From the IMG/VR virus record IMGVR_UViG_3300010376_000007, positions 1-63,879 of that record: a DNA stretch of 63,879 nucleotides. The stretch is one strand, 5' to 3'. The notes beneath the pieces were generated by a model. The model had not been told where the DNA came from. It did no database searches and was given only the letters and a program-made list of their open reading frames with translations. This DNA is from a virus. Taxonomy: Duplodnaviria > Caudoviricetes. The position numbers and the translations under genes are program-made. Below, piece after piece: positions 1 through 63,335 of the stretch (its first letter is position 1; each line of letters begins with the position of its first letter).

Positions 1-123
1 GCCTTGCGGCCCAGCGGCAGGCTGCCCTTGTCGTCGTGGGCCACGATCTCCAGCGGGCGCGGCACCTCCTGCATGAGCTTGCGTAGATTGGCCATATTCC
101 TGCTCCAGCATCAACAGGTCGCC
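1..123. repeat. Terminal direct repeat, identical to 63757-63879 (circular assembly overlap)
   Basis: Bases 1-123 match the last 123 bases exactly, and a minus-strand ORF reads in frame across the join. Confidence 0.95.
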
Positions 124-6184: not shown

Positions 6185-6365
6185 AAAAGGGTGTCCGCTG
6201 GGTGCGGTTGTCCTCCTGATACCAGTAGTACACCCCGTCGGTGGCGAAGGTCATGCTGATCTTGCGGCCCTCGTCAAGCACAATATAGCGCTCGTCGCTC
6301 CTCGGCTCGGCGCCGTTGTCGGCAATCGCCTGGGCGACGCCGGGTCCCACGCTGAAGTCGCTCAT
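6183..6365 (-). CDS. 60-aa protein, putative N-terminal part of the frameshifted peptidase
   Basis: ATGA overlap with the upstream gene; ends CCC TTT TGA. Confidence 0.75.
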   Translation of the reverse strand: MSDFSVGPGVAQAIADNGAEPRSDERYIVLDEGRKISMTFATDGVYYWYQEDNRTQRTPF

Positions 6366-45496: not shown

Positions 45497-45858
45497 CAGT
45501 CGTGGCCGAAGATCGCCGCGTAATTGTCCCTGTAAGCGTCGGATGGGGCGGAGAGAAACCTCTCCGCCCCCGCCGACTTGGTCCGCCAGCGTGACTCACG
45601 GCCGAGTCGATGGTCAATGTCTACCCCGGTCGAGGTGGTTCTGGTCCACGTAAACCCGCACCCCCCCTTCCGGACATCGGCGTTGAAGATCGACCAGTCG
45701 TGGACGCCTTCACGGACGCCAGACCGGTCGCCTTCGCTGCGATGGGCTGCATCGACTTCCATGCACCCGTCGGAGGGGCAGCGGTCGTAGTAATCGCCGT
45801 CCTTGGACGAGTTGGCCGGGGGATCTACGTGGGTCCCCTCAACGTGAATGACGGTCAC
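45496..45858 (-). CDS. Hypothetical protein
   Basis: GTGA overlap with the capsid stop; CPSDGC...GCG. Confidence 0.6.
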   Translation of the reverse strand: MTVIHVEGTHVDPPANSSKDGDYYDRCPSDGCMEVDAAHRSEGDRSGVREGVHDWSIFNADVRKGGCGFTWTRTTSTGVDIDHRLGRESRWRTKSAGAERFLSAPSDAYRDNYAAIFGHD

Positions 45859-47081: not shown

Positions 47082-47198
47082 TTACCTCTTCTTCTTGTTC
47101 TGAGATGACCAGGGCCTCGGCTTGCGCTTGGCCTTGGGTTTGGGGTAACTGGGCTTGACCTGTGCCGCCATCGCGCTGGTTCCGGTAGTGCCGGCCAT
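47082..47198 (-). CDS. 38-aa micro-protein resembling the capsid N-terminus, with a basic tail
   Basis: MAGTTGTSAMAAQVKPSYPKPKAKRKPRPWSSQNKKKR; TAATG overlap with the scaffold stop. Confidence 0.65.
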   Translation of the reverse strand: MAGTTGTSAMAAQVKPSYPKPKAKRKPRPWSSQNKKKR

Positions 47199-48073
47199 TA
47201 GCCCATCGTATCTCGCAGCTTCTGCATGCGGGCGATGTTGGCCTTGGGGCCTGCCTTGGAGTCGTACGTCTGCGCGGCTGCCCTGACCTCGTCGGCCGAC
47301 GCGGCTTTGCCGCGCCTGGTGCTTGCCGGTCGGGCGCCGTTGGGGCTGGTCGCCCCGAGCTTCTCGCGCTCCTCTTGCCGGATCCGCTCGCGCATCTGCG
47401 CGGGGGTCTCGTCCTTCTTTGGTGGTGCCACTGCGGTGCCTCCCTGGCCTGATCGTGCGGCCTGTCGCATAACCTCGCGGTAGAACGTCTCCTCGGCGTC
47501 CCAGGCAGCATCTGGGATCTCGTCCAGATTCGGACGCACGCCAAACTCGCGTTCGGCTTCGTCGACGATCTCGGTGACGCGGCGGTTCATGTACTCGCGG
47601 CGTTCGTCGTCGGTGGCCTCGTGCTGTGCCGGGGCCTGCTGTTGCGGAGGGTTGGGGGTGGATTGCTGCGCCGGTTGTCGCTGCGCGCCAGCGGCCCGCA
47701 GGTCCCTGACCTCACCCTGGAGGAGTTGAATCTGCCGCGCTAAACGGTCTGCGGGAGGCAGACGCTCCAGTTCAGCCTGTTGCTGCTGCTGCCGCACCTC
47801 GGCTTCCCGCTGATCGCGGGCGCTGAGGTTGGCGGCGAGCAGCCTGATCCCGGCCTGAAGCTCTCCGATCTGGGCGTTCTGGTTGGCAAGCTGGGCCTGG
47901 GCTTGCTGCGCCTGGCGCCTGGCTTCGGCGGCTTCACGGCCTGACTGTGTGAGGCGTCGCTGGATCTCACGCTCACGATCCGCTTCCGTCTCCGGGGCCG
48001 AGTCCTCTTGCGCAGGGGGCGTTTGCCCTGCGGGGAGGTCTTCAAACTCAGCCGCGTTGTCTGCGGTGGCCAC
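47198..48073 (-). CDS. Capsid scaffolding protein
   Basis: Acidic N-terminus, long Q/E/R coiled coil, immediately upstream of the capsid gene. Confidence 0.75.
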   Translation of the reverse strand: MATADNAAEFEDLPAGQTPPAQEDSAPETEADREREIQRRLTQSGREAAEARRQAQQAQAQLANQNAQIGELQAGIRLLAANLSARDQREAEVRQQQQQAELERLPPADRLARQIQLLQGEVRDLRAAGAQRQPAQQSTPNPPQQQAPAQHEATDDERREYMNRRVTEIVDEAEREFGVRPNLDEIPDAAWDAEETFYREVMRQAARSGQGGTAVAPPKKDETPAQMRERIRQEEREKLGATSPNGARPASTRRGKAASADEVRAAAQTYDSKAGPKANIARMQKLRDTMG

Positions 48074-48452: not shown

Positions 48453-51400
48453 CTAAGATACGTTCTCCGGTTGTTCTGGGTCCAGGCCCTGGATCTGACG
48501 CAGGCCGACGTACTTCTTGTTGGACACCCGCGACAGGTAGGCCATGTACTCGGCCAGCGTACCCCGATTGTGCTCGTACGCGGGACCCAGCGGGTCGGTC
48601 TCGCCTTTCCACTCGATGAGCGGGCGCGGGTTGGGCACATTCTGGTCGTCGTACGAGGTCTTCTCTTCCTTGGTCAGGCTGTTCCACAACCGGGTCGCCG
48701 CCACGCGCCGGTTCCATTCGTCCTTGGGCAGCACCCCGCCAGGGAACTTCTTGGCGTCGTTCCACTCGTCCAGCGTGCCGTCCTTGAATTGCTTCCACTC
48801 GGTCGGGGTGAGCGCCGAGCCCTCGCCCTCCCACTGGAAGTACGCGTCGCGCTGGGCCGGGGTGATGCTGGGGTCGCGCAGAACTTGCTTGGTCGTCAGC
48901 GCGGTCGCCCGCCGCCTGGCCTCGTCGAGTTGGTTGAGGTGCTCGTCGGGCTTCCAGCCGTACAGCGGGTCGCCCTGGATGTACGTGCTGCCGTGCTTCT
49001 GGTCACGGTTGTTGGCGACCGTCAGTTCCTGATCCCACTTGGCCCAGTCCTGCGCGTTGCCCAGCGGCTGGCCATTCTCGTCGACGTACTTGTAGGCCGT
49101 GACCTTCTGCCTGACCGCCTCAGCCCGGTCGTAAGAAAGCTGATCGGGCGTCTGGTCGGCTACCGGCAGCTTGCGCAACTGGATGCGGCGGGCCAGGTTG
49201 GTCTGGTCGAGTTGCGGCCCGTTCGGGTTGGTGGCGTTGATGGCGTTGACCGTATTCGACAGGTACGTCTCCTTGGCCATGCGCGCCGCGTCGGGCGGCA
49301 GATCCTCCTGGGTCTTGGCGTCTTTGCCCGCGTTGGTGTAGCCGTTGATGATGTCATCAAGCTGGCCGCTGGTGACGCCCGGAATGGGGGGCGGCGCCCC
49401 ATCGCCGTACATCTGCGCCTTGAGCGTGTCCTGCAGCACATCGTAGTCGACGCCGTAGGTCTTGGCCGTGTCGGCCATCCAGCGCTGGCGCTGGTCGGCC
49501 AGTTCGCCCGCCGCGTCCTTACCCGGGTGCGAGGCGAGCCCGCGTCGTCCGCCCGCCTGCAGGTCCGCGACGAGGTTCGGGTCGCGGTTCCAGGCCATGC
49601 GCACGAGGTTCTGCACGTAGTCGCTGGGCTGGCCGGAGGTGTCCAGATCGGCAGGCACGTCGGCCCCCCGGTTGGTGTTCTGGTCGTCCAGCCAGGCGAT
49701 CTCCTGGCGCAGCCGTGCGTCTTCGGGCTGCGTCTCGGGGCTCAGCTTGAGTTTGGCGTCGATCTGGTCCTTGCGGACCTGGCTCTCGGGCTTCTTGTCC
49801 CCCAGCGCGCTGCTGATCGACTTGCCTCGGTCCCCGTACGTAGCGTTGGGATCCTCGACGCCGTTGATCAGATTGGCGATGTGCTGGTCGACGCCCATAT
49901 TGGCGTTGCGGTTGTTGTCGAGGATGGCCTGCCAGTCGCGCGGGTCCTTACCGGCGTCCTTGATGAACTCATCCTGCATGTCGAAGAAGCGTTCGGCTTC
50001 GGTGCCGTGCGACAGCCGCGCGCCCGTGACGGCCGAGCCGAGCGTGGTCTGCCACGGCTCGCCGGTGGTGCCGCCCTTGATGACCTGGGTCACGCCCGTT
50101 GGCAGCATGTGCTGCGCGGCAACGTTGACGCGGTTGATAGCCTGCTGCCAGAACGGATCGTCGTTACGGTCGAGCGGGCGCCCCGCGAAGTCGTGGTCGT
50201 CGAGAAGCTGTGCCGCGCCGGTGCCCAGCATACTGCCGCGCGCCGAGGCGAAGTCCTTCATCCGCTGACCCGGGTCGGGGCGCGGGATGGCCAGCGAGAC
50301 ATCCTCGCCAGGCTTGGGGAAGTAGCCCGCGATGGCGGGGCCACCGGGCAGGCTCATCGGGTCGACTCCGACGCCCTTGGCCGCTGCCACGGTCGAAGCC
50401 CTGCCCAGGTCGATGATGGGCTGCAGCAGGCCCTTGTACGGCCCCAGCACGTCGATGTACGGCGTGAACTTGTTGCCCTTGGAATCGGTCGTCGACCAGC
50501 CAAACTTGTTGTATAGATTGGTGGCGTCGACTTCGAGCACATGATCAGGGTCGTTCTGCCACGAGAAGTGCCCGCCCAGCGCCAGGTTGGAGGCTTCCAG
50601 CAGGAACGCCGACTGCAGCGCGGCGTTGGCCCAGTACTGGCGCGACATCTCGCCGGTGGGGGTGTTGAGCGCAGAGGTGCCGATCAGCCGCGCCCAGGAT
50701 TCGGTCCAGTCGGGCGCCAGCATCGTCAGCCGCATGGCGTCCTGCACCGTGCGCGAGCGGGCGATGGCCTCCAGATTGTTGCCGCCGTAGACCGTGTTGG
50801 CGAACTCGGCAGCCGCCTTGCCGCCGTACTTCGGGGCGTACATCTCGTAGGTGCTGAGCTTCATCATCGGGATGGTCCGGTTCCACAGACCCTCGCTGAT
50901 GGTCTCGACCAGGCTCTTGGTGCCCATACCCCGGAACTGCTGGCCCAGCAGCATGCCAGTGCCCGGCGCCGTGGTCGCCGCACCCATCGCCGCACCGGCC
51001 AGGCCCCACTTGATCTGGTCCTGCACGTCGCCGCCCGCCGCCGCCGACGCTTGCGAGCCCACCAGCGCGCCGCCGCCGACGTTCATCAGCGTGGTGGCGA
51101 TGCGCGCCTTGGTGCCCGTCACGTCGTGCTCCGCCAGGGTGTTCAGCGACAGGCCGTCCTTCATGGCCTGCTCGATCATGCCGCGCGACTTGGCGTCGGA
51201 CATGAAGTTCCTGAACTCGCCCGGGTTGAGGGTGCCCTTGACGATGCTGGACATGTTGCCCAGGCCGCTAGTGCCCTGCGTCGCCCAGTACTGGCGCCAC
51301 TCGTTGGCCATGTGGAACAACGAGCCCGACAGCGTGTTGTGCTTGAGCGCCGCGTTCATCTGCATGACCGGCTGGACCAGATAGCGCAGGCCAGGCGCGT

Positions 51401-54400
51401 TGGCGAAGCCCTGCGGCGAGAACGCGTTCTTGAACACCTCGGCCAGTTCGGGCGAGACGTACGTCTTCTCGGCGCCGAAGACTTCAGCCGCGTACTTGTT
51501 GCCAATACCCGGAATGCTGCCCAGCCAGATCGCGTTGGACGGCGCCTTGGTGCCCTGCGGGATGCGCACCACGTCCTCGCCTGCGAGCATGAAATCGCCC
51601 AGCGTCTTGCCGTACCACTTCGGGTTGTTGATCTGCGCTTGGGCTTCCAGGCCCCCCACCATGTTGTCCAGCGCCTGGGCGCGCAGCCCCGCCGAGTAGT
51701 AGTTGCCCAGTACCTTGGGCAGATCGTCGGAGTATTTCACCCCGGCTGCCATGCCGTCTTCGAGCGTCTCGTGCAGCCGCTCCTGGGTGTAGGTGTAGAA
51801 CGGGTTGGACGACGCGCGACCGGGCTGGTTCCTGCCTCTGCCCAGCTTGACCGCCTGGTCCCAGTCCGACTCGACGGCGTGCGGTACGTACAGCACGGCC
51901 TTGCTGCCGGGCTTGTTGAAGTCGATATCGTTGGGCACAATGTTGAGCCTGGCAAAGTCGTTGGCGACCGTCTTCCACTCGTCGAGTGTTTCCCTGGCAG
52001 CCTTGTAGTCGATGTTGGGGTCGGACAGCATGGCAATCGGCAGCCGACCGGTGCGCTCGATGGTCGCCAGCGTGTTGGCGTCGTAGGCGTACTTGCCCCA
52101 GGTGCGGTACACCCGGTCGCTGAAGTTCCTGCCCGCCTCGATGCCCCAGCCCGTGTCGCCCGCGAACGTCTCCCACATCGAGCGCGCCTTGGGGGTCAGG
52201 TTCATGGTCGGCGCGAAGAACTCGCGCAGCGGCGCCAGAGCCCGGGCGCCAGCGGGCGACTCGATGGCCGCGCTGACGGCCTTGGGGATCATCGCCGCGC
52301 CATGCACCACGGCTGCTGTGGAGCCCAGCCCGAGCAGCGACTTGGTGGCCACGTTGGTGTAGTAGTCCGGGCTGTTGGGGTCCTCGGTGGCCAGGCCGAC
52401 CGCCGCGCCCGCCGCGCCGCCGCCCAGGTCAAGCGCCAGCTTGGTGTTGACCGCCGCTGCCTGCTTGCTGCCCAGGCCCAGCGCGGTGCGGTCCGCCGCC
52501 TGAGCTTCGGGCGCCAGGCCGATCTCGCGCAGCCCGCCAATGCGCTCGCCCAGCGACTGGCCGTAGGCGCCCGCGCGCTCGCTGTCGCCCAGGATGTCCA
52601 TGCCCGCGCCGCGCATGATCGAGTCCGTCTTGTCGAGCACAGTCTGTGCGTCGACGCCGGGGTTGGTGCGCGCGACGGCGTTCATCACCTCGCGCCTGAC
52701 CTGATCGCCCGTCAGCGGCTCGTAGCGCTCGCCCTCCGCCACGGCCTGCGCCGACTGCTCCAGGGTCGAGTCGTTCAGGTCCAGCGCCGCGCGCTGCAGC
52801 ACCGTGCGCGTCTCGTCCTGGGTCAGCGGACGCACGAAGTCGGTGTACTCCGGGGCGTGCTTGGCCACGCCCTCGGCGGCAGCCCTGGCCGCGTCGCCGG
52901 TGAGCACCTGGGGCAGCACCTCGGTGCCGTCGAGGATCACCTTGCCGGCCTTGCCGTACTTGGCGATGCCCGCCGCCGGGTCCACGACCATGGCCAGGTT
53001 CATCGGGTCGGTGACAAACGCGGCGCCCTCGGCAGCCCACTGACCTTCGGGCGAGTCGCGCACCTCGGGCGACTGCATCGCCTGGGCGATGGACTTGCGC
53101 AGATCGCTGTTGGCATCCATCGCTTCGGTGACAAGCTGCGCGCCCTCTGCCGGGTTGAGCACGCCACCGTGGGCCACCTTGTACGAGGCTGGCCGCTGCT
53201 GCGGGTCGGGAGTGCTGATGTTCAGCAGCGTCTGGTTGACCAGATCGGCGTCGTAGCCGTTGTCCTTGAGGTAGCCGAGCGAGTCCGCCACGCCAGGCGC
53301 CAGGATCTGCGCGGGCACAGCGGCGGGTCCGAGCGCGGACAGCGCCTTGCTCTTGGCCATGTCGGCCGCGTACCCGCCCGGGTCCTGCAGCATCTTGGTG
53401 TACTCGTCGACCAGGCCCTGCTGCGCTCCAGTCGCGGCCTGGGTCGCCGCGCCAGTGACCGCCTCGGTTGCCGCTCCTGCTGCCTGGCCAGCCACGTCGG
53501 GGGCACCGCTCAGGTCAACCGGCTGGGCGCCCAGGTCCTGGGCTGCCGCGTGTACGTCACCGGCGGTCTGCGCGACCCCCTGTGCGGCGTCGGCCAGCGG
53601 CGCGCCAGGCTCCGTCTGCATGACCGCCTGGTTGAGGTCCCCTGCTGTGTCGGCCACGTTGCGCGCCGTCTGGCCCGCGATGTCCGCCCCGCCCCGCGCC
53701 ACGGTGCCGAGCCCGCTGAAGACGCCGCCGATCATCGGGCCAGCCGCCTGCGCCACGTCCTGGGCGCCCGACGCCAGTGTCTGGGGCACGGTGCCCTCCT
53801 GCGCGGCCTTATCCAGCGACTCGCCAGGCTTGAGACGGTTGGGCGCGGTCTGCGAGATCGGCTGGCGCGCCGGCACCGACAGCGGCGCGCTCACCGGGTC
53901 GGGGGGCGGCGGGGGTGGCGGCGGCGCCTCGTCGGGCGGCGGCATCTCGGGCGGCGGTGGGCTCAGGTCGGGCGGCGGGGTCACCTCCAGGGGCGGCATC
54001 TCGTCGGGGCGCTTGATGCGCTCGTAGCTGCCAGTGCTGGGGTTCAGGAAGTACTGGTCCTCTTCGTCCTGGCCCGCGCCCACGCGGGCGGAGGGCACAT
54101 AGGTATCGCCGTCCCAGTGGCCTGCCTTCTGGGGGTACTGACCGGCAAACTTGGACTGGTCCGAGAACGTCGGGTGGTTGGGTTTCTTGTACGTGTCCGG
54201 CCAGTGACCCGTCTCGGGATCGGGCCTGATCCCAGCGGCGAACGCGCCGCGCAGATCGTAGTCCCAGCCCGAGTCGCGCGGTGCGTTCTGCGCCTTCCAG
54301 ATCTGGAACGCGGCCTCGCCCTGCGGCGACAGCGGCGTGTCGAGGAACGAATAGTCAGTGTCGTCGTCTTCCTCAGCCTGGGGCGGCGTGCCGCCCAGGT

Positions 54401-56081
54401 GGCGCATCAGGTCCGGGTCGCGCTCGTCGGCGCCCGAGCCCAGATCCGTCTGGTCCTCACCCGAGTGGCCGAGTACCGTGCCGTTGGGCGCGCTGGCCTT
54501 GCCCAGGTCGTCCTTCTTGATGCCCCCGGCGGTGTACAGCGTGACGATCTGGCGCCCATGCTCGACGGTGACCACCCACTCGGTGGGCACATCCTGCGGG
54601 CTGGAGCGCAGCCCGCCGCCCGTCGCGCGGCTGTACAGCGAAGGGTCCACGCCGTTCACGCGGCGGAACTGGGCGCCCGACCACAGCGGGGTGATGTCCA
54701 CGCCGCCGTTGGGGTTGATGCTGGAGTCGTGGACCATCATGCCGTTGCCGGCGTAGATGCCCACGTGCTCCATGTGCGCCCCCTCGCCCATGTTGTAGAA
54801 GACGAGGTCGCCCGGCATGGCATCCTGAGCGCGCACGTTCGAGGTCTGCTGGAACATGCTGCTGGTCTGCGCGGGCAGCGTCAGCCCGGTGGCCTGGTTG
54901 TAGGCCCAGGCCACGAACCCGGAGCAGTCGGAGCCGACGAACTTCGGGTCGAAGTTTGACCGCCCTCCGGCGCCGCCCCACACGTACTTGGAGCCGACCT
55001 GGCCCGCCGCCGTGTCCAGCAGTCCGGTCATGCCTACGCGCTGGGTGTCCTTGTCGACGCCCAGCTTGCTGGGCTTGCTGGGATCCGCCGCCTGGGTGCC
55101 GTCCAGACTGTTGCCGATGCTGATGACCTGATTCGACCAGTTCGGATCGGTGGCGTAGCCCGCGTCGTGGACCATGCGCAGGAAGCCACGCCAGTCGTCA
55201 GGGTTCTGCTTCAGGTACGACATGGCGGGCTGATAGCGCGAGTTCGACTGCAGGAACCGGGCGAAATCGTTGGCCGAATCCTGATAGCCCTGGTACGCCC
55301 GGAAGGTGTCCTGAATGTTGACGCGCTGGCCGTTGACGACTTCCCAGGTGCCGACCTGGCCCGTGTTGGCGCCCGTATCGGGGTTGGAGCCCTTGATGCC
55401 GAAGTAGTTGTTCCCGGCGACAGCCGTGCCCCAGCCCGTCTCGTTGGCGCTCACAGCGACGATGGCCTGCCACGGGATGCCCGTCTTGGCCTGCACCTTC
55501 TCGGCGGCAGGGATGGCCATAGCCGTGAAGTCCTGCTGGCTCTGGGTCCTCGGAGCGCTGCTCGACGAAGACGAAGAGGAGGTGGCACGAGCCGCAGACG
55601 AAGGCCCTTGAGGAGGAGGCGCCGCTTGCCGCGAAGGTGCAGCGCTCTTTGTTACCCCCGTCTGCGGTTGTGCGGTCCGCGCAGCCGTACTCCCGCTCGT
55701 CGCGCGGGGAGCATGATCCGCTGCAGAAGTGGCTGGTGGCGGCGCTTGAGACGATGCGGGGGACTCAGACCCGCTCGGCTCTTCTGAAGTTGTATCAGAA
55801 GATGGGGCAGGCGTCAAAGATTGTGGTGGTACATAGGCATCCGCTGCCCAGCCACCAATCCGGCTCAGATACTCGGGTACCGAGATCCCCTGCGCGACCT
55901 GCTGAGGTGCGTCAGGTTCCTCATCATCCCCCGCGCCCAACTCCATGCCAGGCACCTCCCACGCGCTGCGGATCTTGACTGTGCGATTCGGTCGCGGCGC
56001 CCAGCCGGGCCGAGTACGCGACAGCAGGTTCGGCGTGGGGGAGGTCGCGGGGTCGGTCGCCAGCCAGTCGGGAACTGCCAT
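48453..56081 (-). CDS. Giant internal virion/DNA-ejection protein with GH73 (FlgJ-like) and NlpC/P60 domains
   Basis: ANETGWG..NNYFGIKG...GYATDPNW; YVWGG..SDCSGFV...PGDLVFY..HVGIYAGNGMMVH; long helical body. Confidence 0.85.
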   Translation of the reverse strand: MAVPDWLATDPATSPTPNLLSRTRPGWAPRPNRTVKIRSAWEVPGMELGAGDDEEPDAPQQVAQGISVPEYLSRIGGWAADAYVPPQSLTPAPSSDTTSEEPSGSESPASSQAPPPATSAADHAPRATSGSTAARTAQPQTGVTKSAAPSRQAAPPPQGPSSAARATSSSSSSSSAPRTQSQQDFTAMAIPAAEKVQAKTGIPWQAIVAVSANETGWGTAVAGNNYFGIKGSNPDTGANTGQVGTWEVVNGQRVNIQDTFRAYQGYQDSANDFARFLQSNSRYQPAMSYLKQNPDDWRGFLRMVHDAGYATDPNWSNQVISIGNSLDGTQAADPSKPSKLGVDKDTQRVGMTGLLDTAAGQVGSKYVWGGAGGRSNFDPKFVGSDCSGFVAWAYNQATGLTLPAQTSSMFQQTSNVRAQDAMPGDLVFYNMGEGAHMEHVGIYAGNGMMVHDSSINPNGGVDITPLWSGAQFRRVNGVDPSLYSRATGGGLRSSPQDVPTEWVVTVEHGRQIVTLYTAGGIKKDDLGKASAPNGTVLGHSGEDQTDLGSGADERDPDLMRHLGGTPPQAEEDDDTDYSFLDTPLSPQGEAAFQIWKAQNAPRDSGWDYDLRGAFAAGIRPDPETGHWPDTYKKPNHPTFSDQSKFAGQYPQKAGHWDGDTYVPSARVGAGQDEEDQYFLNPSTGSYERIKRPDEMPPLEVTPPPDLSPPPPEMPPPDEAPPPPPPPPDPVSAPLSVPARQPISQTAPNRLKPGESLDKAAQEGTVPQTLASGAQDVAQAAGPMIGGVFSGLGTVARGGADIAGQTARNVADTAGDLNQAVMQTEPGAPLADAAQGVAQTAGDVHAAAQDLGAQPVDLSGAPDVAGQAAGAATEAVTGAATQAATGAQQGLVDEYTKMLQDPGGYAADMAKSKALSALGPAAVPAQILAPGVADSLGYLKDNGYDADLVNQTLLNISTPDPQQRPASYKVAHGGVLNPAEGAQLVTEAMDANSDLRKSIAQAMQSPEVRDSPEGQWAAEGAAFVTDPMNLAMVVDPAAGIAKYGKAGKVILDGTEVLPQVLTGDAARAAAEGVAKHAPEYTDFVRPLTQDETRTVLQRAALDLNDSTLEQSAQAVAEGERYEPLTGDQVRREVMNAVARTNPGVDAQTVLDKTDSIMRGAGMDILGDSERAGAYGQSLGERIGGLREIGLAPEAQAADRTALGLGSKQAAAVNTKLALDLGGGAAGAAVGLATEDPNSPDYYTNVATKSLLGLGSTAAVVHGAAMIPKAVSAAIESPAGARALAPLREFFAPTMNLTPKARSMWETFAGDTGWGIEAGRNFSDRVYRTWGKYAYDANTLATIERTGRLPIAMLSDPNIDYKAARETLDEWKTVANDFARLNIVPNDIDFNKPGSKAVLYVPHAVESDWDQAVKLGRGRNQPGRASSNPFYTYTQERLHETLEDGMAAGVKYSDDLPKVLGNYYSAGLRAQALDNMVGGLEAQAQINNPKWYGKTLGDFMLAGEDVVRIPQGTKAPSNAIWLGSIPGIGNKYAAEVFGAEKTYVSPELAEVFKNAFSPQGFANAPGLRYLVQPVMQMNAALKHNTLSGSLFHMANEWRQYWATQGTSGLGNMSSIVKGTLNPGEFRNFMSDAKSRGMIEQAMKDGLSLNTLAEHDVTGTKARIATTLMNVGGGALVGSQASAAAGGDVQDQIKWGLAGAAMGAATTAPGTGMLLGQQFRGMGTKSLVETISEGLWNRTIPMMKLSTYEMYAPKYGGKAAAEFANTVYGGNNLEAIARSRTVQDAMRLTMLAPDWTESWARLIGTSALNTPTGEMSRQYWANAALQSAFLLEASNLALGGHFSWQNDPDHVLEVDATNLYNKFGWSTTDSKGNKFTPYIDVLGPYKGLLQPIIDLGRASTVAAAKGVGVDPMSLPGGPAIAGYFPKPGEDVSLAIPRPDPGQRMKDFASARGSMLGTGAAQLLDDHDFAGRPLDRNDDPFWQQAINRVNVAAQHMLPTGVTQVIKGGTTGEPWQTTLGSAVTGARLSHGTEAERFFDMQDEFIKDAGKDPRDWQAILDNNRNANMGVDQHIANLINGVEDPNATYGDRGKSISSALGDKKPESQVRKDQIDAKLKLSPETQPEDARLRQEIAWLDDQNTNRGADVPADLDTSGQPSDYVQNLVRMAWNRDPNLVADLQAGGRRGLASHPGKDAAGELADQRQRWMADTAKTYGVDYDVLQDTLKAQMYGDGAPPPIPGVTSGQLDDIINGYTNAGKDAKTQEDLPPDAARMAKETYLSNTVNAINATNPNGPQLDQTNLARRIQLRKLPVADQTPDQLSYDRAEAVRQKVTAYKYVDENGQPLGNAQDWAKWDQELTVANNRDQKHGSTYIQGDPLYGWKPDEHLNQLDEARRRATALTTKQVLRDPSITPAQRDAYFQWEGEGSALTPTEWKQFKDGTLDEWNDAKKFPGGVLPKDEWNRRVAATRLWNSLTKEEKTSYDDQNVPNPRPLIEWKGETDPLGPAYEHNRGTLAEYMAYLSRVSNKKYVGLRQIQGLDPEQPENVS

Positions 56082-56085
56082 GGCC

Positions 56086-58182
56086 CTACGCCGCGATGCC
56101 GCTCAGGTTCTGACCCGTCTGGTTGGTCTTGACGTTGGCGGCCTGGGCACCCGACCACAGGCGCTGTTGCCCCGTCCAGAACTGCGACGGGCTCTGGCCG
56201 AAAAGCTCGCCGGTCATCTGCATGCCGGCCTGATCGGCGGGGTTGGCGCCTGCTGCCTGCATCTGGGTGACGTTGGGCGTGCCGCCCGCCTGCTGGTACT
56301 GGCCCCCCAGCGCCGCGCTCATCTGGTTCCACACGCCTGGCCCCAGCGCCTCGATGTCGGTGCGGTACGCGGCTTTCTGGAAGGGCGTCATCTGCTGCCA
56401 CTGCTGCCAGTCAGGGTTTCCATTGAGGGTGCTGGTCGAGGTCGCGTAGGGCAGGCTGGGCTGTCCCTGACCCGCAGGCCCGCTGGGTCCGCCCGCCGTG
56501 CTGCCCTGCAGGCCCATCACGCTCGGTGCGTTCTGCACGCCCCAGGCGCGCGGGTCGTACGGCTGCATGATCTGCTGAATCAGGTTGGCCAGGTTCTGGC
56601 CACCCACCACGCTACCCGGCGCGGCGCCCGGCGCGGGGCTCATGCCCGAGAGCGCCTGCAGCCAGGGGTTGGAGAGCGCGCTGCCCAGGATCTGCATGCG
56701 CTGGTCCTGACCCTTGCTCCACGAGTCGTAGGCTTGCTGGCCCTGCTGCAGGTAGATGGCGTTGCCCTCCTGCATCTGCTGGATCTGAATCTCGTGCGCC
56801 TCGCGCATCTGCTCCAGACGCTCGTTGCTGGCGATCTGGTCGCGCTGAAGCTGCTCCTGGGCCTGGGCGTGCCGGACGTTCTCGGCGTCTTCCTGCTGCT
56901 TGAGCAGCACGTCGTCCTGATGGAACTGGTAGTCCTGCTGGATCTTGGCCAGCGCCTCATTGTGCCGGTTGTTCTCGGCGTCGCGCTTCTGCGCGTCTTC
57001 CATCTGGGCGATCTTGAGCAGGTTGTCGAGTTGCTTGTTGGTCAGATCCACGCTGGCCTGCTGGCTGGGGGTCATCGTCGCCGTGTCGCCGGCGCCCATA
57101 CCGCCCTCACCCCCGGAGCCGACCTTGCCCAGCGACGAGCCGACCTTCCACGTGTTGCGCTGCCAGGCGTCGTACTTGTTGGCCATATCCCGCAGCACAG
57201 GGTCTGGGTTTTGCGAGTACGAGTTCGGGTCCGGCCCGATGTTGTTGGCGCGGGTACCCGAGTTGAAGGCCGAGGTGTTGGCCGTCGCCAGCGACGAGAC
57301 CGACGGGTCGATGGCCGATGCCAGCCACGAGCCAGGCCCGGTGCCGCTGGCAGCAAACGACGGGTTCTGCTGGATCTCCTGAATGTGGCCCTGGCGGGCC
57401 TGGGTGCCTGGTGCGCCCGTGCCGCCCGGCCCCGTCGAGCCGCTCTGTCGATCCGCGCCTGGAATGACCTTGCCTGTGCTGGAGTCGATGACCGACCCGC
57501 CCGCGTCGTTCGGATCGGCGCGCGTCTCGTCCCAGTGCATCGACCCGTCGGGGTACTTGACGTATACCCCCCCGGCACCCATGCCCCGCTCGCCGCCGGA
57601 GCCGACTTTGCCCAGTGACGAACCCACCTTCCACGTGTCCCGCTGGAACTGGTCGTACTGATTTTTCATGTCCTGCAGCTTCGGGTCGGTCTGGGTCATC
57701 GTCGTGCCCGCGCTGGGGTCGGTCGACAGCAGGCCAACCCCGCTCGCCTGGGACGGCGTGTACGCCGAGGCGCCCGACATCGAACCGATGCTGGGATCCA
57801 GCGCGGAGGCCAGCCACGAGCCCGGTCCGGTGCCCGAGGCGGCGAACGTCGGGTTGGCCTGCAACTCGGCAATGTGCGCCTGCTGCGCCTGCGAGCCCTG
57901 CGGCCCGGTGCCGCCGGGTCCCGACGCGTAGCTCTGGCGGTTGGCACCCGGGATGGCCTTGCCCGAGGAGGAGTCGATGACCGATCCGCCGTTGGGGTTG
58001 GGGTCGGCCTTGGTCTCGTCCCAGTGCATCGAGCCGTCGGGCGACTTGACGTACACGCCGCCCGCGCCCATGCCCCCCGCGCCGTTGCCGGAGCCAATCG
58101 GCGCGGGCGAGCGCGGCCCCCAGAACGGCCCCTGATCCTTGGCCTGGTACAGATCCCACAAGGTGTCGGCGCTCATGCTCAT
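56086..58182 (-). CDS. Internal virion protein with two tandem ~160-aa repeats and a coiled coil
   Basis: ATGA overlap at 58182; repeat unit GVYVK.PDGSMHWDET...WKVGSSLGKVGSGGE.GMGAG. Confidence 0.8.
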   Translation of the reverse strand: MSMSADTLWDLYQAKDQGPFWGPRSPAPIGSGNGAGGMGAGGVYVKSPDGSMHWDETKADPNPNGGSVIDSSSGKAIPGANRQSYASGPGGTGPQGSQAQQAHIAELQANPTFAASGTGPGSWLASALDPSIGSMSGASAYTPSQASGVGLLSTDPSAGTTMTQTDPKLQDMKNQYDQFQRDTWKVGSSLGKVGSGGERGMGAGGVYVKYPDGSMHWDETRADPNDAGGSVIDSSTGKVIPGADRQSGSTGPGGTGAPGTQARQGHIQEIQQNPSFAASGTGPGSWLASAIDPSVSSLATANTSAFNSGTRANNIGPDPNSYSQNPDPVLRDMANKYDAWQRNTWKVGSSLGKVGSGGEGGMGAGDTATMTPSQQASVDLTNKQLDNLLKIAQMEDAQKRDAENNRHNEALAKIQQDYQFHQDDVLLKQQEDAENVRHAQAQEQLQRDQIASNERLEQMREAHEIQIQQMQEGNAIYLQQGQQAYDSWSKGQDQRMQILGSALSNPWLQALSGMSPAPGAAPGSVVGGQNLANLIQQIMQPYDPRAWGVQNAPSVMGLQGSTAGGPSGPAGQGQPSLPYATSTSTLNGNPDWQQWQQMTPFQKAAYRTDIEALGPGVWNQMSAALGGQYQQAGGTPNVTQMQAAGANPADQAGMQMTGELFGQSPSQFWTGQQRLWSGAQAANVKTNQTGQNLSGIAA

Positions 58183-61100
58183 ATGTCCAACATCGCACTG
58201 GTCCCTGCGGAAGACCGCCGTTTCATACCCCCGGCGCGTGGCGTCCAGCCCGCGCGGCGTCCCATCTCCATCCTGCTGGAGGGCATGCGCATCGGCTGGC
58301 GCATCGACGTGGACAAGTGTACCGGCCCGAGTTGCAGACCGGCACCCATGCCGGAGCGCGGCGCCTGCATGCGCGCGATCAACTCCATCAGCAGCGCCAT
58401 GATCTCTTCGGAGGACATGTCCTGATGTCCCGGCTCGGCGGGTACCGACGGCTCGCCCGTGTCGGCACCCGCGCCGCCCAGCCACGCCGGGCGCTGATCC
58501 CACCAGTTGTTGACACTCTCCTGCACGTCGCCCAGGTCAGGTAGCGGGGGGCCGGCGCCTTCCGTGTGCTCGGGTAGCTGAACCTCCGGGCCTGGCACGT
58601 GCCCCTGGGGGAACTCGGGCAGCGGCACGGGGATGTGCCCGCCCGGCATTTCCACCGGCGGCATGAAGATGTTGGGCTTGCTCAGGTCCTCGATGCTCGG
58701 CCCCACCGGCGGCTTGTGCCCGCCGCCCAGATCAATCGGCGGTGAAACCGACTTGCTCTTGTCAGGGATCTCGGGGATACCTGGCTCGTAATCCCCGTAA
58801 CCGGGGTACTTCTGCTGTAGCCGCTGTTCCTCGGCCTGGTACGCCTTCTCCTCCTCGTCCATCTGGTGTTGCCAGTCGTTGTAGCCGGCGTCCCGCGCAT
58901 CTTCGTCCATCTGCGCGCGGCGCTCCGCATGCTCACGCGCCACGCGCTCCTCGTCGGTCTCCGCTGGCGGGCGATTCTCAGGAGACAGCTTGGCCAGATC
59001 TTCCCAGGACGTGGGCGGCGGCTTCTCCGTACCCACGGCCAGCCCGGTCTTGTCGGGAGGCGGCGTCGGGTTGGTGACGCCCTTGGGCTCCCAGCCGCCG
59101 GGCGGCGGGGTGGTCGGCTCACCGGCGGCGCGCTTGCGCTCCCACTCGGTCTCCCAGTCAGTGGCGTCTTGCTTCTCCTCAGGCGCCGCTGGCGTCTCGG
59201 CGGGCTTGTACTTGGCGCGGATGGCCTCGACCTCGTCCTGGGTGGGCGGATGTCCGAGTTGCTTCATCTCGTCGATGGCGCCTTGCGGCCAGCCCTGATC
59301 GGCCAGCTTGTCGAGCTTACCGCCCAGCGCTTCTTGCCCCTGCTGCTGGCGAATGAACCACTTGTGCTGCCGGTCCCACTTGTTCCACTCCTTGGGGTTG
59401 GTGTCCTTGTCGTGCGGGTTCCACCCCTCGGCGGTGTACGGGCTGTCGTTCCACGTGCTGCGGTTCTGGATGCCGTGCTGCGCGGCGGACGACTGCGGGT
59501 TGGTCTCCTGGCTGCGGCGGTAGCGGTCCTCGGGCTGCGTGTTGCGCTCGTACTCACCGATGCTGTGGCCCGGGTCGAGATCCTCACCCCTGGCCTCCTG
59601 CTCGGCGTCGTAGTCAGCTTTGCTGGCCGTGCCCTGGCGAATGCGCTCCTGGCGCGCGTCGCGCTCGGGGTCGTCGGCTGCGCCCGGCGCGGTGCGCCAG
59701 GTGCCCTGCTTCTTCATCTGCTGATCGACCCAGCGGTTGTGCTGGATGTTCCATTGCCGCTGCAGGTTGCGGTCGTTGAAGCCGTACGGATTCTGCTTGT
59801 TCCAGCCGAAGGGGCTCAGCGGATCTTCGTCGGCGGGCTCGTCCTGCCCGCCGCCCATCGGCTGCGGGGGCTGGCCCGCAGACTGCACAGGAGTTGGAGG
59901 CGTCCCCTGCGCGGCCTGCGGTCCAGGCTGGGGTCCGCCAGGCGAGGAGGTCCCGCCAGGTGGCCCCATCATCTGGGTGCCTGGCACAGGAGGGAGATTG
60001 GCCATGGCACCCAGCGAGGCGGTCGGATCCGTCGGTTGCCCGTCCGGAGTCTTGACCGCCCAGTGTAGGTGGGATCCCGTCGTGTTCCCCGTGGATCCCA
60101 CCTTGCTCTGCAAGTCCTGCCCCTGCGACACGGTAAGGCCCGGGTACGCGCTGGTCTCCTTCAAGTGGCCCAGCTTGTGCGTGGTGCCGTCCTTGCCCTG
60201 CAGGATGACGGTGATACCCAGCCCCTGCGGGTTGTACTCGACGCGCTGCACCACCCCGTCGACGGGAGCAATGGTCGGCGTGCCCTCAACCGCCTGCAGA
60301 TCGACGCCCGAGTGGAACGGCTCGCCCATGTTCATCTGCTGCCCGAAGCGGTGGCCGATGCCCGCCACATCGTCCTGGGGCACCGGCGGGGTCCAGCCCG
60401 CGTAGCTGCCCGCATTGGGTTGAGCCGGCTGTTCGTCCTGCCCGCCGCCCATCGGCGCGCCCTGGCCAGCCTGGCGCCGCTGCATGGCGAACTGGAACAG
60501 CGGGTCGTTGGTATTGGGCAGCGCACCGGGCTGCGACGGCATGGCGCCCGGCTGGATGCCCGGCATGGTGCCGCCCCCCCCGCCGGGCGGGCCAAGCGCC
60601 GCCAGGTCAGGCGGCTTGAGCGGGTTGTAGCCAGGCTGCGAGGCGATGGCCGTGGGGTCTCCCCCCATCGGAGACGGTGAGGTTGCACCCCCCATGGGAG
60701 GAGCCCCGACAGGCGCTGCCCCAGGAGGAGGAGGCGCCCCCTGAATGGCTTGTGGCGTCGGTGTCGTGTCGTAACCCGGGTTGCCCGCTGGCCTGTGTTT
60801 GTCTGGCAGCGAGGTGCCCTGCCCGCCCTGCGGGATGTCAGTGCCCGCGCCGGTGATCTCGCTCCGCCTGCGGCGGCGCCCGACGGTGGGATCCCAGACG
60901 ACCTCGTCGGGGTTCTCCTGGCCGTACTCGTCGGTCTGGTCCTGCTCGCCCTGATCGCCCTGGTCCGTGGTGTCTTCGAGACCCTCGGCCAGCGTGCTGC
61001 CCAGCCCCTCGTAGTCTGGCGGCGCGGTGTTCTTGTAGTCGATGCCGGTCAGGTTGCCCTGCGCGTCGTAGTGGGCGATGTCACCCGCCGCCGTGGTGCG

Positions 61101-63335
61101 CGTGGTCGGCGGCTGGGCAGCGCCCTGCAGGCGCGGATCCTCTCCCGGCCAACCAGGCTTCATGATCGCGCCCGCCGGCGAGTTGGCGGCGAGCGCCTGC
61201 TTCTCGTCGATGCCCAGGTTGATCAGACCAGGCTGATCTTCCTGCTTGGCCTGCGGCTGCTGCGTGGGCTGCTGCGTCTGGCTCTTCTGGATCTCGGTGG
61301 CGGCGGCGTTAGCCTTCTGCGTGTCGCCGCCCGCCAGCGCCTTGTCCATCTCGTCCATCAGCGAGCGCATGCGCGCGATGTTGGCTTTCTGCTCGTCGCT
61401 CAGGTCGCCGCCCGAAACGTGCTCGTACGTCGAGGTTTTCGTTTCCGGGTTGTAGCGCTGCACGTCAGCGGCGGCGCCCGACGGCAGGTAGATGTCGCTG
61501 GAGCCGATGAAGCGCGCTTCCGGGTGCTCCAGCTTCTGCAGCGAATCGAGCATCTTCATGCGCGAGTCGGCCTGGGTGATCTTGGCCGTGGCCAGGTCCG
61601 ACTTCGATTTCTCGATGTCGGCCAGCGCCTTCTGCCGGTCGATGGCCTTGCGGTCCTCGTAGTCCTCGGGCGTGTAGATCGTCTGGGTCTTGGACGGGTC
61701 GTCCTTGTTGACGGCGATGGCGCGGCCGTACGTGTCGTAATGGATGTCGTACCCCGGCGGCGGCTTGTACATCTCGGTGGCCGACTTGCCGTCGTCGCTG
61801 AGCTTGAGCAGGCGCCCGTTGCTCTCGTAGATGCCCGCTTTGGGGTCCACCCCGCCCAGCTTCTCCTGCGCGCCGGTCTGCTCGTTGACGATCCACGTCT
61901 GGCCCGCCGAGTCCTGATGCACGGCGTACGGCGTCGAGCCAATCGTCGCCGCGTCGATGCGCGCCTGGTTGATGCCCGCCTGTTTGTCCACGTCGGTCTG
62001 CTGCTTGGCCGCGTAGTCCCTGGCCATCTGCGCCTCGCGGGCGGCGTCGTGCGTCCACTTGCCATCGGCGCCCTGCACGAGCACAGTCGGGTGAGGCGAG
62101 TCCTGGCCGTAGATCTTGGTGTTGCCTTCCTGGCCCGGCGTGGCGGCTTTGTCGGGCTGCGAGACGCCGTAGTCGGTGATGACGCCCTGGTCGGGGTGCT
62201 CCTTGTCGACCAGCACCCGGTGCATCTTGCCGTCGCCGCCCATCTGCTCGATGATCTGGCGCCCGCTGCCGGTCTTCAGGTTGGCGTCGAGTTCCTTGGC
62301 GTAGTCGGGCGACATGGCGCGCTGTTCTTTTTCGGCGTACTTGACGAACGGCCGCTCGGAGGTGCCCGCCTTGTACTGCGCGTCGTAGTAGCCAATCGGG
62401 ATGTTGGCCTTGCCGCCCGTGTCGGACTGCAGCCACAGCGTCTGGCGTACCGGCGCGCCTCCCGGTCCACGCGGCGGCTGGCCGTCGGCGCCATTGGGCG
62501 GGTCGAGCATGAAGTGGTAGCCCGACGGGGCGGTGGTGGGCGGCTGCGATTCGGCGGGCGAGCTAGCGCCCCCTCCCCCGCTGGTGTCCCCGCCGCCGCT
62601 CGCAGCGCTGCCACCACTGCTGCCGTAGATGGCGTCTTCGGGGGACACCGGCTCGCCGGTGTCGTCGTCGTAGCCGTCTCCGTCGTCGTCGGCGCCGGTG
62701 CCCATGCCCCAGTTCTGCAGGTTGCCGGTCATCGAGCCGCGCTGTTCGACAGGCCGCGCGGTCGGGCCGCTGGCCTGCACGCGCGGACCTGGCCCGGTGC
62801 CGTAGGGTGTGGGGGACAGCGGCGGCTGGCCAGGCGAGAACTGGTTGGTGCGCAGCGCGGCGTTTTCGCCGTAGCGCCCCATCAGCCCGTCGGTGCCCGC
62901 CGGTGTGCCTGGCGAGGCGACGATGGAGTCGGCGCCCATGCCCATGCTGCCGCCCTGCCCGGTGTTCTTCCACACGTTGCTCTGAACCCGCTGGCCAGCG
63001 TTAGCCGGCTGAAGCGCGGACGACAGCCCCGTGCCCGCCGCCGGTCCGCCGCCCTGTGGGGGCTGGCCGGGCGGACTCACGTTGCCGCCCGCCTGCAGTT
63101 CATCGTGCGGCACCAGCGAGTAGTTCAGCTTGTCGATGGGCGCCAGCACGCCTGGCGCGTGGACCTCGCCCGTCTCGGGCGTGTAGTTGATGCGGTCGAT
63201 GGGCGCGCCCGTCCCGGGGGGGCTGGCGATGATGTGCGGCTGGGGTCCACGCTCCAGGCCCGTGCGGCCGTTTTCGGCCATCAAGCGCGCCCCGGGCCGC
63301 GTCGTAGTCAGGCTGGGTGGCTGCCAGAACGGCAT
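58179..63335 (-). CDS. Large internal virion protein with M23 peptidase domain
   Basis: FHSGVDL (HxxxD), VGSTGNTTGSHLHW (HxH); P/G/Q-rich linkers. Confidence 0.85.
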   Translation of the reverse strand: MPFWQPPSLTTTRPGARLMAENGRTGLERGPQPHIIASPPGTGAPIDRINYTPETGEVHAPGVLAPIDKLNYSLVPHDELQAGGNVSPPGQPPQGGGPAAGTGLSSALQPANAGQRVQSNVWKNTGQGGSMGMGADSIVASPGTPAGTDGLMGRYGENAALRTNQFSPGQPPLSPTPYGTGPGPRVQASGPTARPVEQRGSMTGNLQNWGMGTGADDDGDGYDDDTGEPVSPEDAIYGSSGGSAASGGGDTSGGGGASSPAESQPPTTAPSGYHFMLDPPNGADGQPPRGPGGAPVRQTLWLQSDTGGKANIPIGYYDAQYKAGTSERPFVKYAEKEQRAMSPDYAKELDANLKTGSGRQIIEQMGGDGKMHRVLVDKEHPDQGVITDYGVSQPDKAATPGQEGNTKIYGQDSPHPTVLVQGADGKWTHDAAREAQMARDYAAKQQTDVDKQAGINQARIDAATIGSTPYAVHQDSAGQTWIVNEQTGAQEKLGGVDPKAGIYESNGRLLKLSDDGKSATEMYKPPPGYDIHYDTYGRAIAVNKDDPSKTQTIYTPEDYEDRKAIDRQKALADIEKSKSDLATAKITQADSRMKMLDSLQKLEHPEARFIGSSDIYLPSGAAADVQRYNPETKTSTYEHVSGGDLSDEQKANIARMRSLMDEMDKALAGGDTQKANAAATEIQKSQTQQPTQQPQAKQEDQPGLINLGIDEKQALAANSPAGAIMKPGWPGEDPRLQGAAQPPTTRTTAAGDIAHYDAQGNLTGIDYKNTAPPDYEGLGSTLAEGLEDTTDQGDQGEQDQTDEYGQENPDEVVWDPTVGRRRRRSEITGAGTDIPQGGQGTSLPDKHRPAGNPGYDTTPTPQAIQGAPPPPGAAPVGAPPMGGATSPSPMGGDPTAIASQPGYNPLKPPDLAALGPPGGGGGTMPGIQPGAMPSQPGALPNTNDPLFQFAMQRRQAGQGAPMGGGQDEQPAQPNAGSYAGWTPPVPQDDVAGIGHRFGQQMNMGEPFHSGVDLQAVEGTPTIAPVDGVVQRVEYNPQGLGITVILQGKDGTTHKLGHLKETSAYPGLTVSQGQDLQSKVGSTGNTTGSHLHWAVKTPDGQPTDPTASLGAMANLPPVPGTQMMGPPGGTSSPGGPQPGPQAAQGTPPTPVQSAGQPPQPMGGGQDEPADEDPLSPFGWNKQNPYGFNDRNLQRQWNIQHNRWVDQQMKKQGTWRTAPGAADDPERDARQERIRQGTASKADYDAEQEARGEDLDPGHSIGEYERNTQPEDRYRRSQETNPQSSAAQHGIQNRSTWNDSPYTAEGWNPHDKDTNPKEWNKWDRQHKWFIRQQQGQEALGGKLDKLADQGWPQGAIDEMKQLGHPPTQDEVEAIRAKYKPAETPAAPEEKQDATDWETEWERKRAAGEPTTPPPGGWEPKGVTNPTPPPDKTGLAVGTEKPPPTSWEDLAKLSPENRPPAETDEERVAREHAERRAQMDEDARDAGYNDWQHQMDEEEKAYQAEEQRLQQKYPGYGDYEPGIPEIPDKSKSVSPPIDLGGGHKPPVGPSIEDLSKPNIFMPPVEMPGGHIPVPLPEFPQGHVPGPEVQLPEHTEGAGPPLPDLGDVQESVNNWWDQRPAWLGGAGADTGEPSVPAEPGHQDMSSEEIMALLMELIARMQAPRSGMGAGLQLGPVHLSTSMRQPMRMPSSRMEMGRRAGWTPRAGGMKRRSSAGTSAMLDI

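Follow-up and report, generated by a model that had tools for sequence, protein, structure and literature searches.

What purpose is served by a short glycine motif that three large proteins of one phage repeat at the joints between their domains? The proteins are encoded in the late block of the IMG/VR virus record IMGVR_UViG_3300010376_000007, which is complete at 63,879 bp and is called the window below; its source is an uncultured, soil-type phage. The three genes concerned, referred to as A, B and C, are the following.

58179..63335, minus strand: giant protein A, 1718 amino acids, with a conserved N-terminal module, a mosaic middle, an M23 domain and a charged C-terminal part
56086..58182, minus strand: protein B, 698 amino acids, whose start ATG overlaps the stop of A
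48453..56081, minus strand: giant protein C, 2542 amino acids, with a leader, a GH73 + NlpC/P60 cassette, a small domain and a conserved C-terminal part

An initial annotation of this DNA had listed 13 copies of a [MLVT]-G-[AGSTM]-G motif in these proteins and had read them as sites at which packaged polyproteins are cut. All 13 sites are real and lie within about 10 nt of the positions assigned to them. The motif is sharper than that pattern, reading [M/L/F]-G-[A/G/T/M/V/S]-G-[Q/A]-[D/E] with small or acidic residues after it, and processing of packaged polyproteins appears to be its best explanation, with a probability of roughly 0.55.

The loose pattern [MLVT]G[AGSTM]G matches 20 times in the giants (4,958 amino acids) and 12 times in the rest of the proteome (14,255 amino acids). 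Shuffled giants contain on average 4.7 matches when shuffled globally, 6.1 when shuffled locally over 30 residues and 6.8 over 15 residues, and none of 500 shuffles reaches 20. The longer pattern [MLVT]G[AGSTM]G.D occurs 8 times in the giants against 0.33-0.36 expected (0/500 shuffles reach it), and is absent from the other 14,255 amino acids. A family set of 30 proteins (60,041 amino acids) comprised A, B and C together with 10 homologues of C (P0005-P0014, 73-30% identity) and 17 homologues of A (P0022-P0038). The phage's own database calls (P0004 and P0021) and P0015-P0020, with at most 14% of the query matched, were left out, and the Bacillus tape-measure proteins P0039-P0047 were kept as controls. 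In this set G-[AGSTMV]-G-[QA]-[DE] was found 106 times, as against 7.4 ± 2.6 in 30-residue-local shuffles (maximum 16 in 200 shuffles). Enrichment over a composition-matched, locally Gly-rich background was therefore obtained both in the giants (8 versus about 0.35) and in the family (106 versus 7.4).

Among 103 distinct instances, the residue before the first Gly is M in 40, L in 13, F in 9, P in 8, V in 7 and G in 7. Between the glycines stands A, G, T, M, V or S (A/G/S in 72/103, T/M/V in 31/103); the second Gly is followed by Q (69) or A (34), and the acidic position is held by D (66) or E (37). It is followed by S, D, E or G, Ser being the commonest (23/103), with no basic residue over four positions. 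Upstream, at positions -2 to -7 before the hydrophobic residue, the sequence logo is rich in G, P and Q, without periodic hydrophobic residues. The full 6-mer is present 74 times in the family set against 1.4 expected (53-fold). When any single position of the 6-mer is set to "anything else", the ratio drops to 0.6-1.7 and the enrichment is gone.

The motif is also confined to one clade. Twenty other high-GC (guanine plus cytosine) phage loci with GH73 giants of 1,270-3,080 amino acids contain a single copy in about 104,600 amino acids, and nine Bacillus M23 tape-measure proteins contain none. A set of 148 proteins that have the small domain in common with C holds 11 copies in 127,828 amino acids, and two of those with flanking copies, P0168 and P0169, resemble C. 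No copy was found in Streptomyces phage Manuel or in MW202608.1, two distant podoviruses whose genes are arranged in the same order. Of the 18 giant or B-like open reading frames (ORFs) in related IMG/VR loci, 17 carry 1-5 copies, and the other listed ORFs of at least 300 amino acids carry none. Because the motif far exceeds its number in local shuffles and the controls are nearly free of it, chance and linker composition are excluded as its source. Relatives were not found by an IMG/VR scan with a single sequence; an alignment-based scan did find them. As for cultured phages, INPHARED gave no DNA match, A was matched only through its M23 domain and the core of C had no match. Literature searches found no description of the motif or of this phage clade.

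The individual copies, with the leader of C, are distributed as follows.

62928..62945, minus strand: A131, MGMGAD (S-MGMG-ADS); all of 14 A-family proteins keep G132 and G134
62688..62705, minus strand: A211, MGTGAD (G-MGTG-ADDD), motif copy
60837..60854, minus strand: A828, TGAGTD (I-TGAG-TD), variant copy with T instead of Q/A
60435..60452, minus strand: A962, MGGGQD (P-MGGG-QDE), upstream flank of M23; G965 is invariant
59841..59858, minus strand: A1160, MGGGQD (P-MGGG-QDE), downstream flank of M23
58461..58478, minus strand: A1620, (L)GGAGAD, residues 1619-1625, motif copy
58338..58349, minus strand: A1663, MGAG(LQ), partial copy
57085..58071, minus strand: B, partial copies at three edges of its tandem duplication, MGAGG at residue 38 (58071), MGAGG at residue 201 (57582) and MGAGD at residue 362 (57099)
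55941..56081, minus strand: conserved basic leader of C, residues 1-47, with a motif copy immediately after it
55923..55940, minus strand: C48, LGAGDD (LGAGDDEE), variant copy
54426..54443, minus strand: C547, LGSGAD (LGSGADE), motif copy
54066..54083, minus strand: C667, VGAGQD (VGAGQDEE), kept in all 11 aligned C proteins

The loose 4-mer gives 8 further matches beyond the listed ones (A355, A1536, B193, B354, C487, C1219, C1668 and C1952). At the position homologous to C48, relatives read MGAGQE, LGMGQD or VGAGAD. Codons at the motif sites vary synonymously, and changes of the first residue are non-synonymous but chemically conservative, so that the constraint acts on the peptide. After A211 an acidic run, ADDDGDGYDDDTGE (A residues 213-224, 62640-62700, minus strand), is observed, of which ADDDG is kept in P0022 and P0023; we take it to resemble calcium-binding loops of the DxDxDG type.

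The folded modules between these copies could be delimited in A and C.

60024..60317, minus strand: M23 peptidase domain, A residues 1007-1104 (Pfam, E 3.3e-18)
59952..59993, minus strand: segment PPVPGTQMMGPPGG, A residues 1115-1128, directly after M23 and invariant in 14 A-family proteins
55104..55511, minus strand: GH73 glucosaminidase domain, C residues 191-326 (Pfam, E 1.2e-24)
54720..54995, minus strand: NlpC/P60 domain, C residues 363-454 (Pfam, E 9.6e-21)
54084..54425, minus strand: small mobile domain with the core HWPDTYKKPNHPTFS, between C547 and C667

The arrangement that had caught the eye of the first annotators was borne out throughout. M23 lies between the two PMGGGQDE copies (A962 and A1160), the GH73 + NlpC/P60 cassette is bracketed by C48 and C547, the small separate domain by C547 and C667, and GMGAG marks the unit edges of the tandem repeat in B. 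A repeat search gave this duplication a period of 483-489 nt and units of 161-163 amino acids; Tandem Repeats Finder returned 0 rows and missed it. In the 11 aligned C proteins (73-30% identity) the copies occupy matching alignment columns, namely after the basic leader of about 45 amino acids, after the lysin cassette, and before and after the small domain. One C site falls in the same column in 10 of the 11, the eleventh being 20 columns off, and G668 and G670 are invariant.

The modules between the copies are exchanged. An extra NlpC-like domain stands between two motif copies in P0005 and P0010, the small domain is missing from P0011-P0014, and in loci L005-L008 it is replaced by a Cys4 mini-domain of about 55 amino acids with two flanking copies. 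The motif is thus kept in homologues of 30-36% identity while the modules that it separates are swapped, as the polyprotein proposal had anticipated. An AlphaFold2 model of C residues 1-760 (9 sequences, mean predicted local distance difference test score (pLDDT) 51) gave values of 25-43 for all three copies, 70-91 for GH73 and NlpC/P60 and 60-78 for the small domain, which places the three copies in low-confidence, predicted disordered linkers between folded domains. The Cys4 mini-domain has the pattern KPSMSKKEASYTKKA...C.DC...C...C.YFEP (for example at about residues 755-815 of the L006 ORF 1-7077). The small domain is very widespread and is unnamed in both Pfam and PHROGs. At E<=0.001 it matches 2,179 cluster representatives, in which it is apparently stand-alone at about 113-170 amino acids or lies inside proteins of up to 4,304 amino acids.

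Another indication comes from the junction of A and B. B is a separate gene only in this phage, L002 and L009, and in most relatives its modules make up the C-terminal end of a fused A protein. It opens with M-S-M-SADTLWDLYQAK, and the same opening peptide, M-S-M-SADTLWDLYQAKDQGPFWGP, is internal in 13 of the 23 relatives examined. In these fused proteins, G-x-G-Q-[DE] stands directly before the B-opening peptide, reading G-x-G-Q-[DE]-(S/T/N)xD(T/S)(R/L)WD.Y. A gene boundary in one phage therefore coincides with a motif copy in others, which supports a polyprotein made of separately working pieces. The split is real and does not come from an assembly error that shifted the frame within one fused gene, because L002 conserves both the ATGA overlap and the end of A. 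In the distant cultured Streptomyces podovirus Manuel, an NlpC/P60 protein is a separate gene in the portal-capsid block. A, B and C are best explained as mosaic polyproteins in which folded modules are joined by disordered, Gly/Pro/Gln-rich linkers carrying the signal. The recognisable modules are M23, GH73 + NlpC/P60, the small mobile domain, coiled-coil parts and membrane-like parts.

The position of the three genes bears on whether such proteins would be packaged. The late block, on the minus strand, runs from the C39-like ORF through a small ORF, the large terminase, an HNH gene, the probable portal, a protein of about 220 amino acids, an 81-amino-acid protein at 63343-63588, A, B, C and two tiny ORFs to a coiled scaffold-like protein, the major capsid protein and the tail and fibre genes.

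2984-4972, minus strand: large terminase, in the late block
622-2568, minus strand: probable portal, in the late block
45855..47078, minus strand: major capsid protein, without the motif
47198..48073, minus strand: scaffold-like protein, coiled and Q/E/R-rich, without the motif

There is no tape-measure gene. This absence, together with the position between portal and scaffold/capsid, places A, B and C as probable head-internal or ejection proteins of a tape-measure-less, podovirus-like phage, and the location of their genes between portal and scaffold suggests that they are packaged.

Taken together, the motif, its conservation and its boundary position lead us to infer that the six-residue signal is an endoproteolytic processing site. 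Cutting would remove the conserved basic leader of about 45 amino acids from C, and would free wall hydrolases and channel-forming parts as separate polypeptides. It might occur in the procapsid or during ejection, and the scissile bond would lie either after G-x-G or after D/E. The polyprotein-processing claim of the initial annotation is upheld as to enrichment, conserved boundaries with swapped modules and location in linkers, cleavage itself being the inferential step. The effectors that it listed among the released products are not evident; the modules that can be recognised are wall hydrolases together with parts of a structural or ejection kind.

The first candidate for the enzyme is the M23 domain of A, which belongs to a family of Gly-specific metallopeptidases and would act on its own flanks and in trans. 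Its catalytic pattern HxxxD, H, HxH is intact, and H1008, D1012, H1057, H1089 and H1091 are invariant in 14 sequences. The 14 A-family proteins that hold PPVPGTQMMGPPGG unchanged otherwise average 30% identity. M23 is present in 23/23 A-like proteins at 63-94% identity, the rest of A being about 30% identical or unrelated. None of the other M23 domains compared with it, those of motif-free giants among them, exceeds 38% identity. PMGGGQDE lies 45 amino acids before and 56 amino acids after the domain. Read across several comparisons, the motif stands on both sides of M23 in this phage, L003, L007, L017 and 13 of the 17 database homologues. The M23 family is described as cutting Gly-Gly, Gly-Ala and Gly-X bonds (PMC9662197). 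The domain is thus clade-specific, has invariant catalytic residues, is flanked by the motif in most relatives and belongs to a family that cuts Gly bonds, and it is for these reasons a live candidate, and a better one than the C39-like protein discussed below. More tentatively, and on the unlikely side, the whole clade of phages of about 64 kb may do without a dedicated protease, with shuffled ejection polyproteins whose mark would be read by the virion's own M23, serving both as processing protease and as wall drill.

Several observations weigh against processing. The motif was defined after the data had been seen, and the homologues are non-independent samples. The family-wide motif fits 9 of the 13 listed sites, A1663 and the three copies in B being partial (GMGAG without [QA][DE]). 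Capsid, portal and scaffold carry no copy, either in this genome or in the related loci. No assemblin, HK97, ClpP-type or zincin protease was detected in any ORF with Pfam and PHROGs. M23 also occurs in four motif-free giants (L014, L020, L021 and L022), Q after G-x-G would be an unusual P1' residue for an M23 enzyme of the lysostaphin type, and NlpC/P60 is absent from the motif-bearing L009/L017 phage. The phage is uncultured, and the case for cleavage is a sequence-based one. As to other enzymes, the protease search with Pfam and PHROGs over all ORFs and over sub-domains of the giants gave only M23 and NlpC/P60. HExxH and HxxEH are absent from A, B and C. Profile searches against the PDB returned only GH73, NlpC and M23, although a very divergent fold could escape them and the post-portal ORF was searched by sequence only.

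The alternative that survives best is that the motif stays uncut and is a short docking signal for a clade-specific partner, such as the scaffold, the portal, the capsid interior or a chaperone, which would load or order the giants in the procapsid. The strict six-residue specificity in one clade only would suit such a signal, as would the restriction of the copies to proteins encoded between the portal and scaffold genes, the copy directly after the conserved N-terminal leader of C and the failure of the protease searches to find an enzyme. Docking, however, does not need up to 10 copies per protein, at exact module boundaries and on both sides of exchangeable cassettes, and a motif that coincides with a stop/start gene boundary is expected of a cut site and not of a binding site. 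We regard docking as unlikely.

A second alternative accepts cleavage and assigns it to a protease that search tools cannot recognise, which could be the post-portal protein, a domain in the 1800-amino-acid C-terminal part of C, or a host enzyme, cutting perhaps after D/E in the manner of the T4/phiKZ type.

1..612, minus strand, continuing over the 123-bp terminal repeat: post-portal protein, about 220 amino acids, with a CCHH motif and an alpha/beta part, conserved

This protein occupies the protease slot of HK97-type phages, and its gene is present in four of five related records, the fifth being a fragment. Its sequence includes a DKTGGDL segment and the motif P-P-C-x-x-C-G-[ED]-D-H ... 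H, which is invariant; the invariant residues are the CCHH motif plus R/D/E/K/T, and they do not include the Ser/Cys/His set typical of a protease. No match was obtained in Pfam (including five homologues), the PDB or the Atlas (best Atlas score 0.77, no lead). The sequence G-[QA]-[DE], which Ser follows more often than any other residue (23/103), recalls the A-X-E motif with Ser at P1' reported for SPN3US gp245 (PMC10052503). The acidic position, in which Asp (66) outnumbers Glu (37), is unlike that of Glu-specific prohead proteases. On this evidence a concealed enzyme of that kind is quite improbable.

The initial annotation had favoured, among other enzymes, a C39-like peptidase, in which case the motif would be a double-glycine-type site cut after G-x-G by a phage cysteine peptidase.

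5702..6250, minus strand: C39-like cysteine peptidase, candidate protease, more probably endolysin

The span 5699-6365 first given to this gene is not open (4 stops), the open frame being 5702-6250, but the label itself proved sound, because the top structure matches are double-glycine proteases. The model has a pLDDT of 89.7, and its best Foldseek matches among solved structures are LahT150 (6mpz, E 3e-6, template modelling (TM) score 0.70-0.72) and then the peptidase domains of PCAT1 and ComA. All of 34 sequences keep Cys48 and His138, and look-alikes in the ESM Atlas carry Peptidase_C39_2 (score 0.96); Pfam gave no match for the protein. The motif would suit such an enzyme in that P4 is hydrophobic in most instances, P1 is Gly and P2 is small (A/G/S in 72/103), and 3 of 5 related records have the gene, the two that lack it being fragments. 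On the other hand, P2 is T, M or V in 31/103 instances, which is atypical for double-glycine sites, and the sequence logo upstream of the motif has neither an amphipathic leader nor periodic hydrophobic residues. The family is large (705 database relatives) and is met mostly in phages that have no giants or whose giants lack the motif. Only 1 of 80 IMG/VR loci has a motif-bearing giant within 10 kb; on two contigs (L068, the same as L019, and L087, the same as L025) the gene is accompanied by motif-free giants. The gene lies just upstream of the terminase, a slot that in MW202608.1, a distant podovirus with syntenic gene order, holds an annotated endolysin after a holin-like gene. The nearest viral folds include Gordonia and Mycobacterium endolysins, a C39_2-like domain serves as a lysin-type module inside relatives P0008 and P0015, and no other recognisable endolysin was found in the genome. 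Since it sits in a syntenic endolysin slot, has endolysin-like viral folds and is spread among motif-free phages, the C39-like protein is probably the endolysin, and we think it very doubtful that it cuts the motif. Co-folding of its residues 36-183 with C residues 640-690, run without control pairs, gave interaction prediction scores from aligned errors (ipSAE) of 0.00 and 0.01, which weigh neither for nor against cutting. The C39-like frame has no ATG, GTG or TTG between the upstream stop and the catalytic Cys, and near 6200 the third-position GC shifts from a 74-amino-acid ORF (6183-6407) into it. The missing start could reflect an unusual start, a frameshift or an assembly error; the relatives are ordinary ORFs of 174-199 amino acids with normal starts.

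It is hardly credible that the motif is a by-product, whether of the composition of the linkers, of a calcium loop like the GGxGxD of RTX proteins, or of a signal for recombination of the DNA where modules join. In favour of such an origin are the Gly-rich linkers, the likeness of G-x-G-x-D to the core of RTX repeats, the clear shuffling of the modules and the 23 identical nucleotides shared by the A962 and A1160 sites (60430-60452 and 59836-59858), a short direct repeat around the M23 cassette. Against it, shuffles that keep the local linker composition give 7.4 copies against the 106 observed, the copies are single and hundreds of residues apart, with M/L/F (not G) before the first Gly and E for D in 37/103, whereas the RTX consensus consists of tandem GGxGxDxUx nonapeptides, and the synonymous codon variation places the constraint on the peptide.

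The gene models of the giants needed correction. Database calls start late, at residue 188 for C (giving 2355 amino acids) and at residue 19 for A (1700 amino acids). The N-terminus of C omitted in this way consists of the leader and the first motif copy, and as it is kept in relatives the long form of C is real. The C-terminal part of C, about 1800 amino acids, is conserved and has Ala/Gly-rich hydrophobic stretches. A longer, 805-amino-acid GTG form of B finds no support in third-position GC. The 291-amino-acid ORF adjoining the capsid gene is not a protease-scaffold fusion, its sequence being a Q/E/R-rich coil with no globular part.

The record as a whole has a GC content of about 65% and a terminal repeat of only 123 bp. 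It contains three HNH endonuclease genes of one PHROG family (2565-2984, minus strand; 24539-25018, plus strand; 28502-28849, plus strand), of which the first separates the terminase gene from the portal gene. The ORF at 7693-9168 (minus strand) codes for a collagen-like tail-fibre protein, 491 amino acids long, that matches 40 PHROG tail-fibre families. In a 74-amino-acid ORF at 9985-10209 (minus strand), Pfam recognised the hairpin domain of Acb2/Tad1 (PF24729), a match that at E 4.7e-7 clears the curated cut-off. Its product may be a nucleotide sponge directed against Thoeris or against the cyclic-oligonucleotide-based antiphage signalling system (CBASS).

If the motif is a cut site, the mature products of giant "hypothetical" virion proteins could be predicted by a simple rule across a large group of environmental phages. 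It would also show how lysin and small binding-domain cassettes can be exchanged without disturbing processing, and would suggest that maturation here follows a scheme different from the HK97/T4 protease paradigm. A portable short site with a matching protease could serve for engineered cargo release from phage capsids. If it is uncut, there remains a linear motif, sharply defined and specific to one clade, that occurs more than 100 times and needs a binding partner. In either case the gene models are corrected, the database starts of A and C being too late and the conserved leader of C being lost with them.

Proteolytic maturation of packaged phage proteins and polyvalent proteins are known in kind. 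New here are the motif itself, the way in which it recurs as punctuation between modules that can be exchanged, and the apparent absence of a prohead protease of the classical type.

The clan CE proteases of adenovirus, African swine fever virus and poxviruses cut structural polyproteins at GG-X or AG-X inside the particle. Small Gly-containing motifs in structural polyproteins are common to those systems and to the present one; theirs are eukaryotic viruses, however, no Ulp1/adenain-like protease was detected here with Pfam, and the motif of A, B and C extends to Q/A-D/E. The C39 leader peptidases LahT150, PCAT1 and ComA resemble the C39-like protein in fold, and their sites resemble the motif in the hydrophobic P4, small P2 and Gly at P1. 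The phage protein differs from them in being stand-alone and not fused to an ATP-binding cassette transporter, the putative substrates lack a helical leader, and across phages the gene and the motif do not go together.

Polyvalent proteins, as presented by Iyer et al. (2017), are giant, multidomain and packaged with DNA, with embedded peptidases predicted to cut them (PMC5512222). A and C resemble them in joining several unrelated catalytic and structural domains in one polypeptide, and probably in being packaged. The processing peptidases predicted for polyvalent proteins are zincin-like metallopeptidase (MPTase) or C-terminal assemblin-like domains, whereas A, B and C have neither HExxH/HxxEH nor a match to such a Pfam family. 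The modules here are wall hydrolases and structural parts and not anti-defence effectors, and the available part of PMC5512222 describes no cleavage motif.

Another related system is maturation by the prohead proteases T4 gp21, phiKZ gp175 and SPN3US gp245. A short consensus recurs in packaged proteins in those phages as it does here, and an N-terminal propeptide is removed, as we would expect for the leader of C. The differences are that no assemblin-fold (S77/S78/S80) gene was detected in this phage by Pfam, PHROGs or PDB profiles, that its capsid, portal and scaffold are without a copy, and that its motif is longer, Gly-based and richer in Asp than in Glu (66 versus 37). For SPN3US gp245, cutting after A-X-E with Ser preferred at P1' is reported (PMC10052503). 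The copies in A, B and C, moreover, punctuate modules internally and do not stand only at propeptide ends.

A further parallel is Tal of the lactococcal phages TP901-1 and Tuc2009, a virion protein with an M23-type lysin and a Gly-rich site at the lysin-domain junction. The cut is said to be self-mediated, a finding ascribed to Kenny et al. in 2004. In TP901-1, Tal is cut at NGGGNSGGGD before the catalytic domain, and Gly to Arg changes block processing (PMC11409707). Tal has a single site and is a tail-tip protein of a siphovirus, whereas the present phage has many sites with a Q/A-D/E tail, in giants that are probably head-internal, and places them on both sides of the domains.

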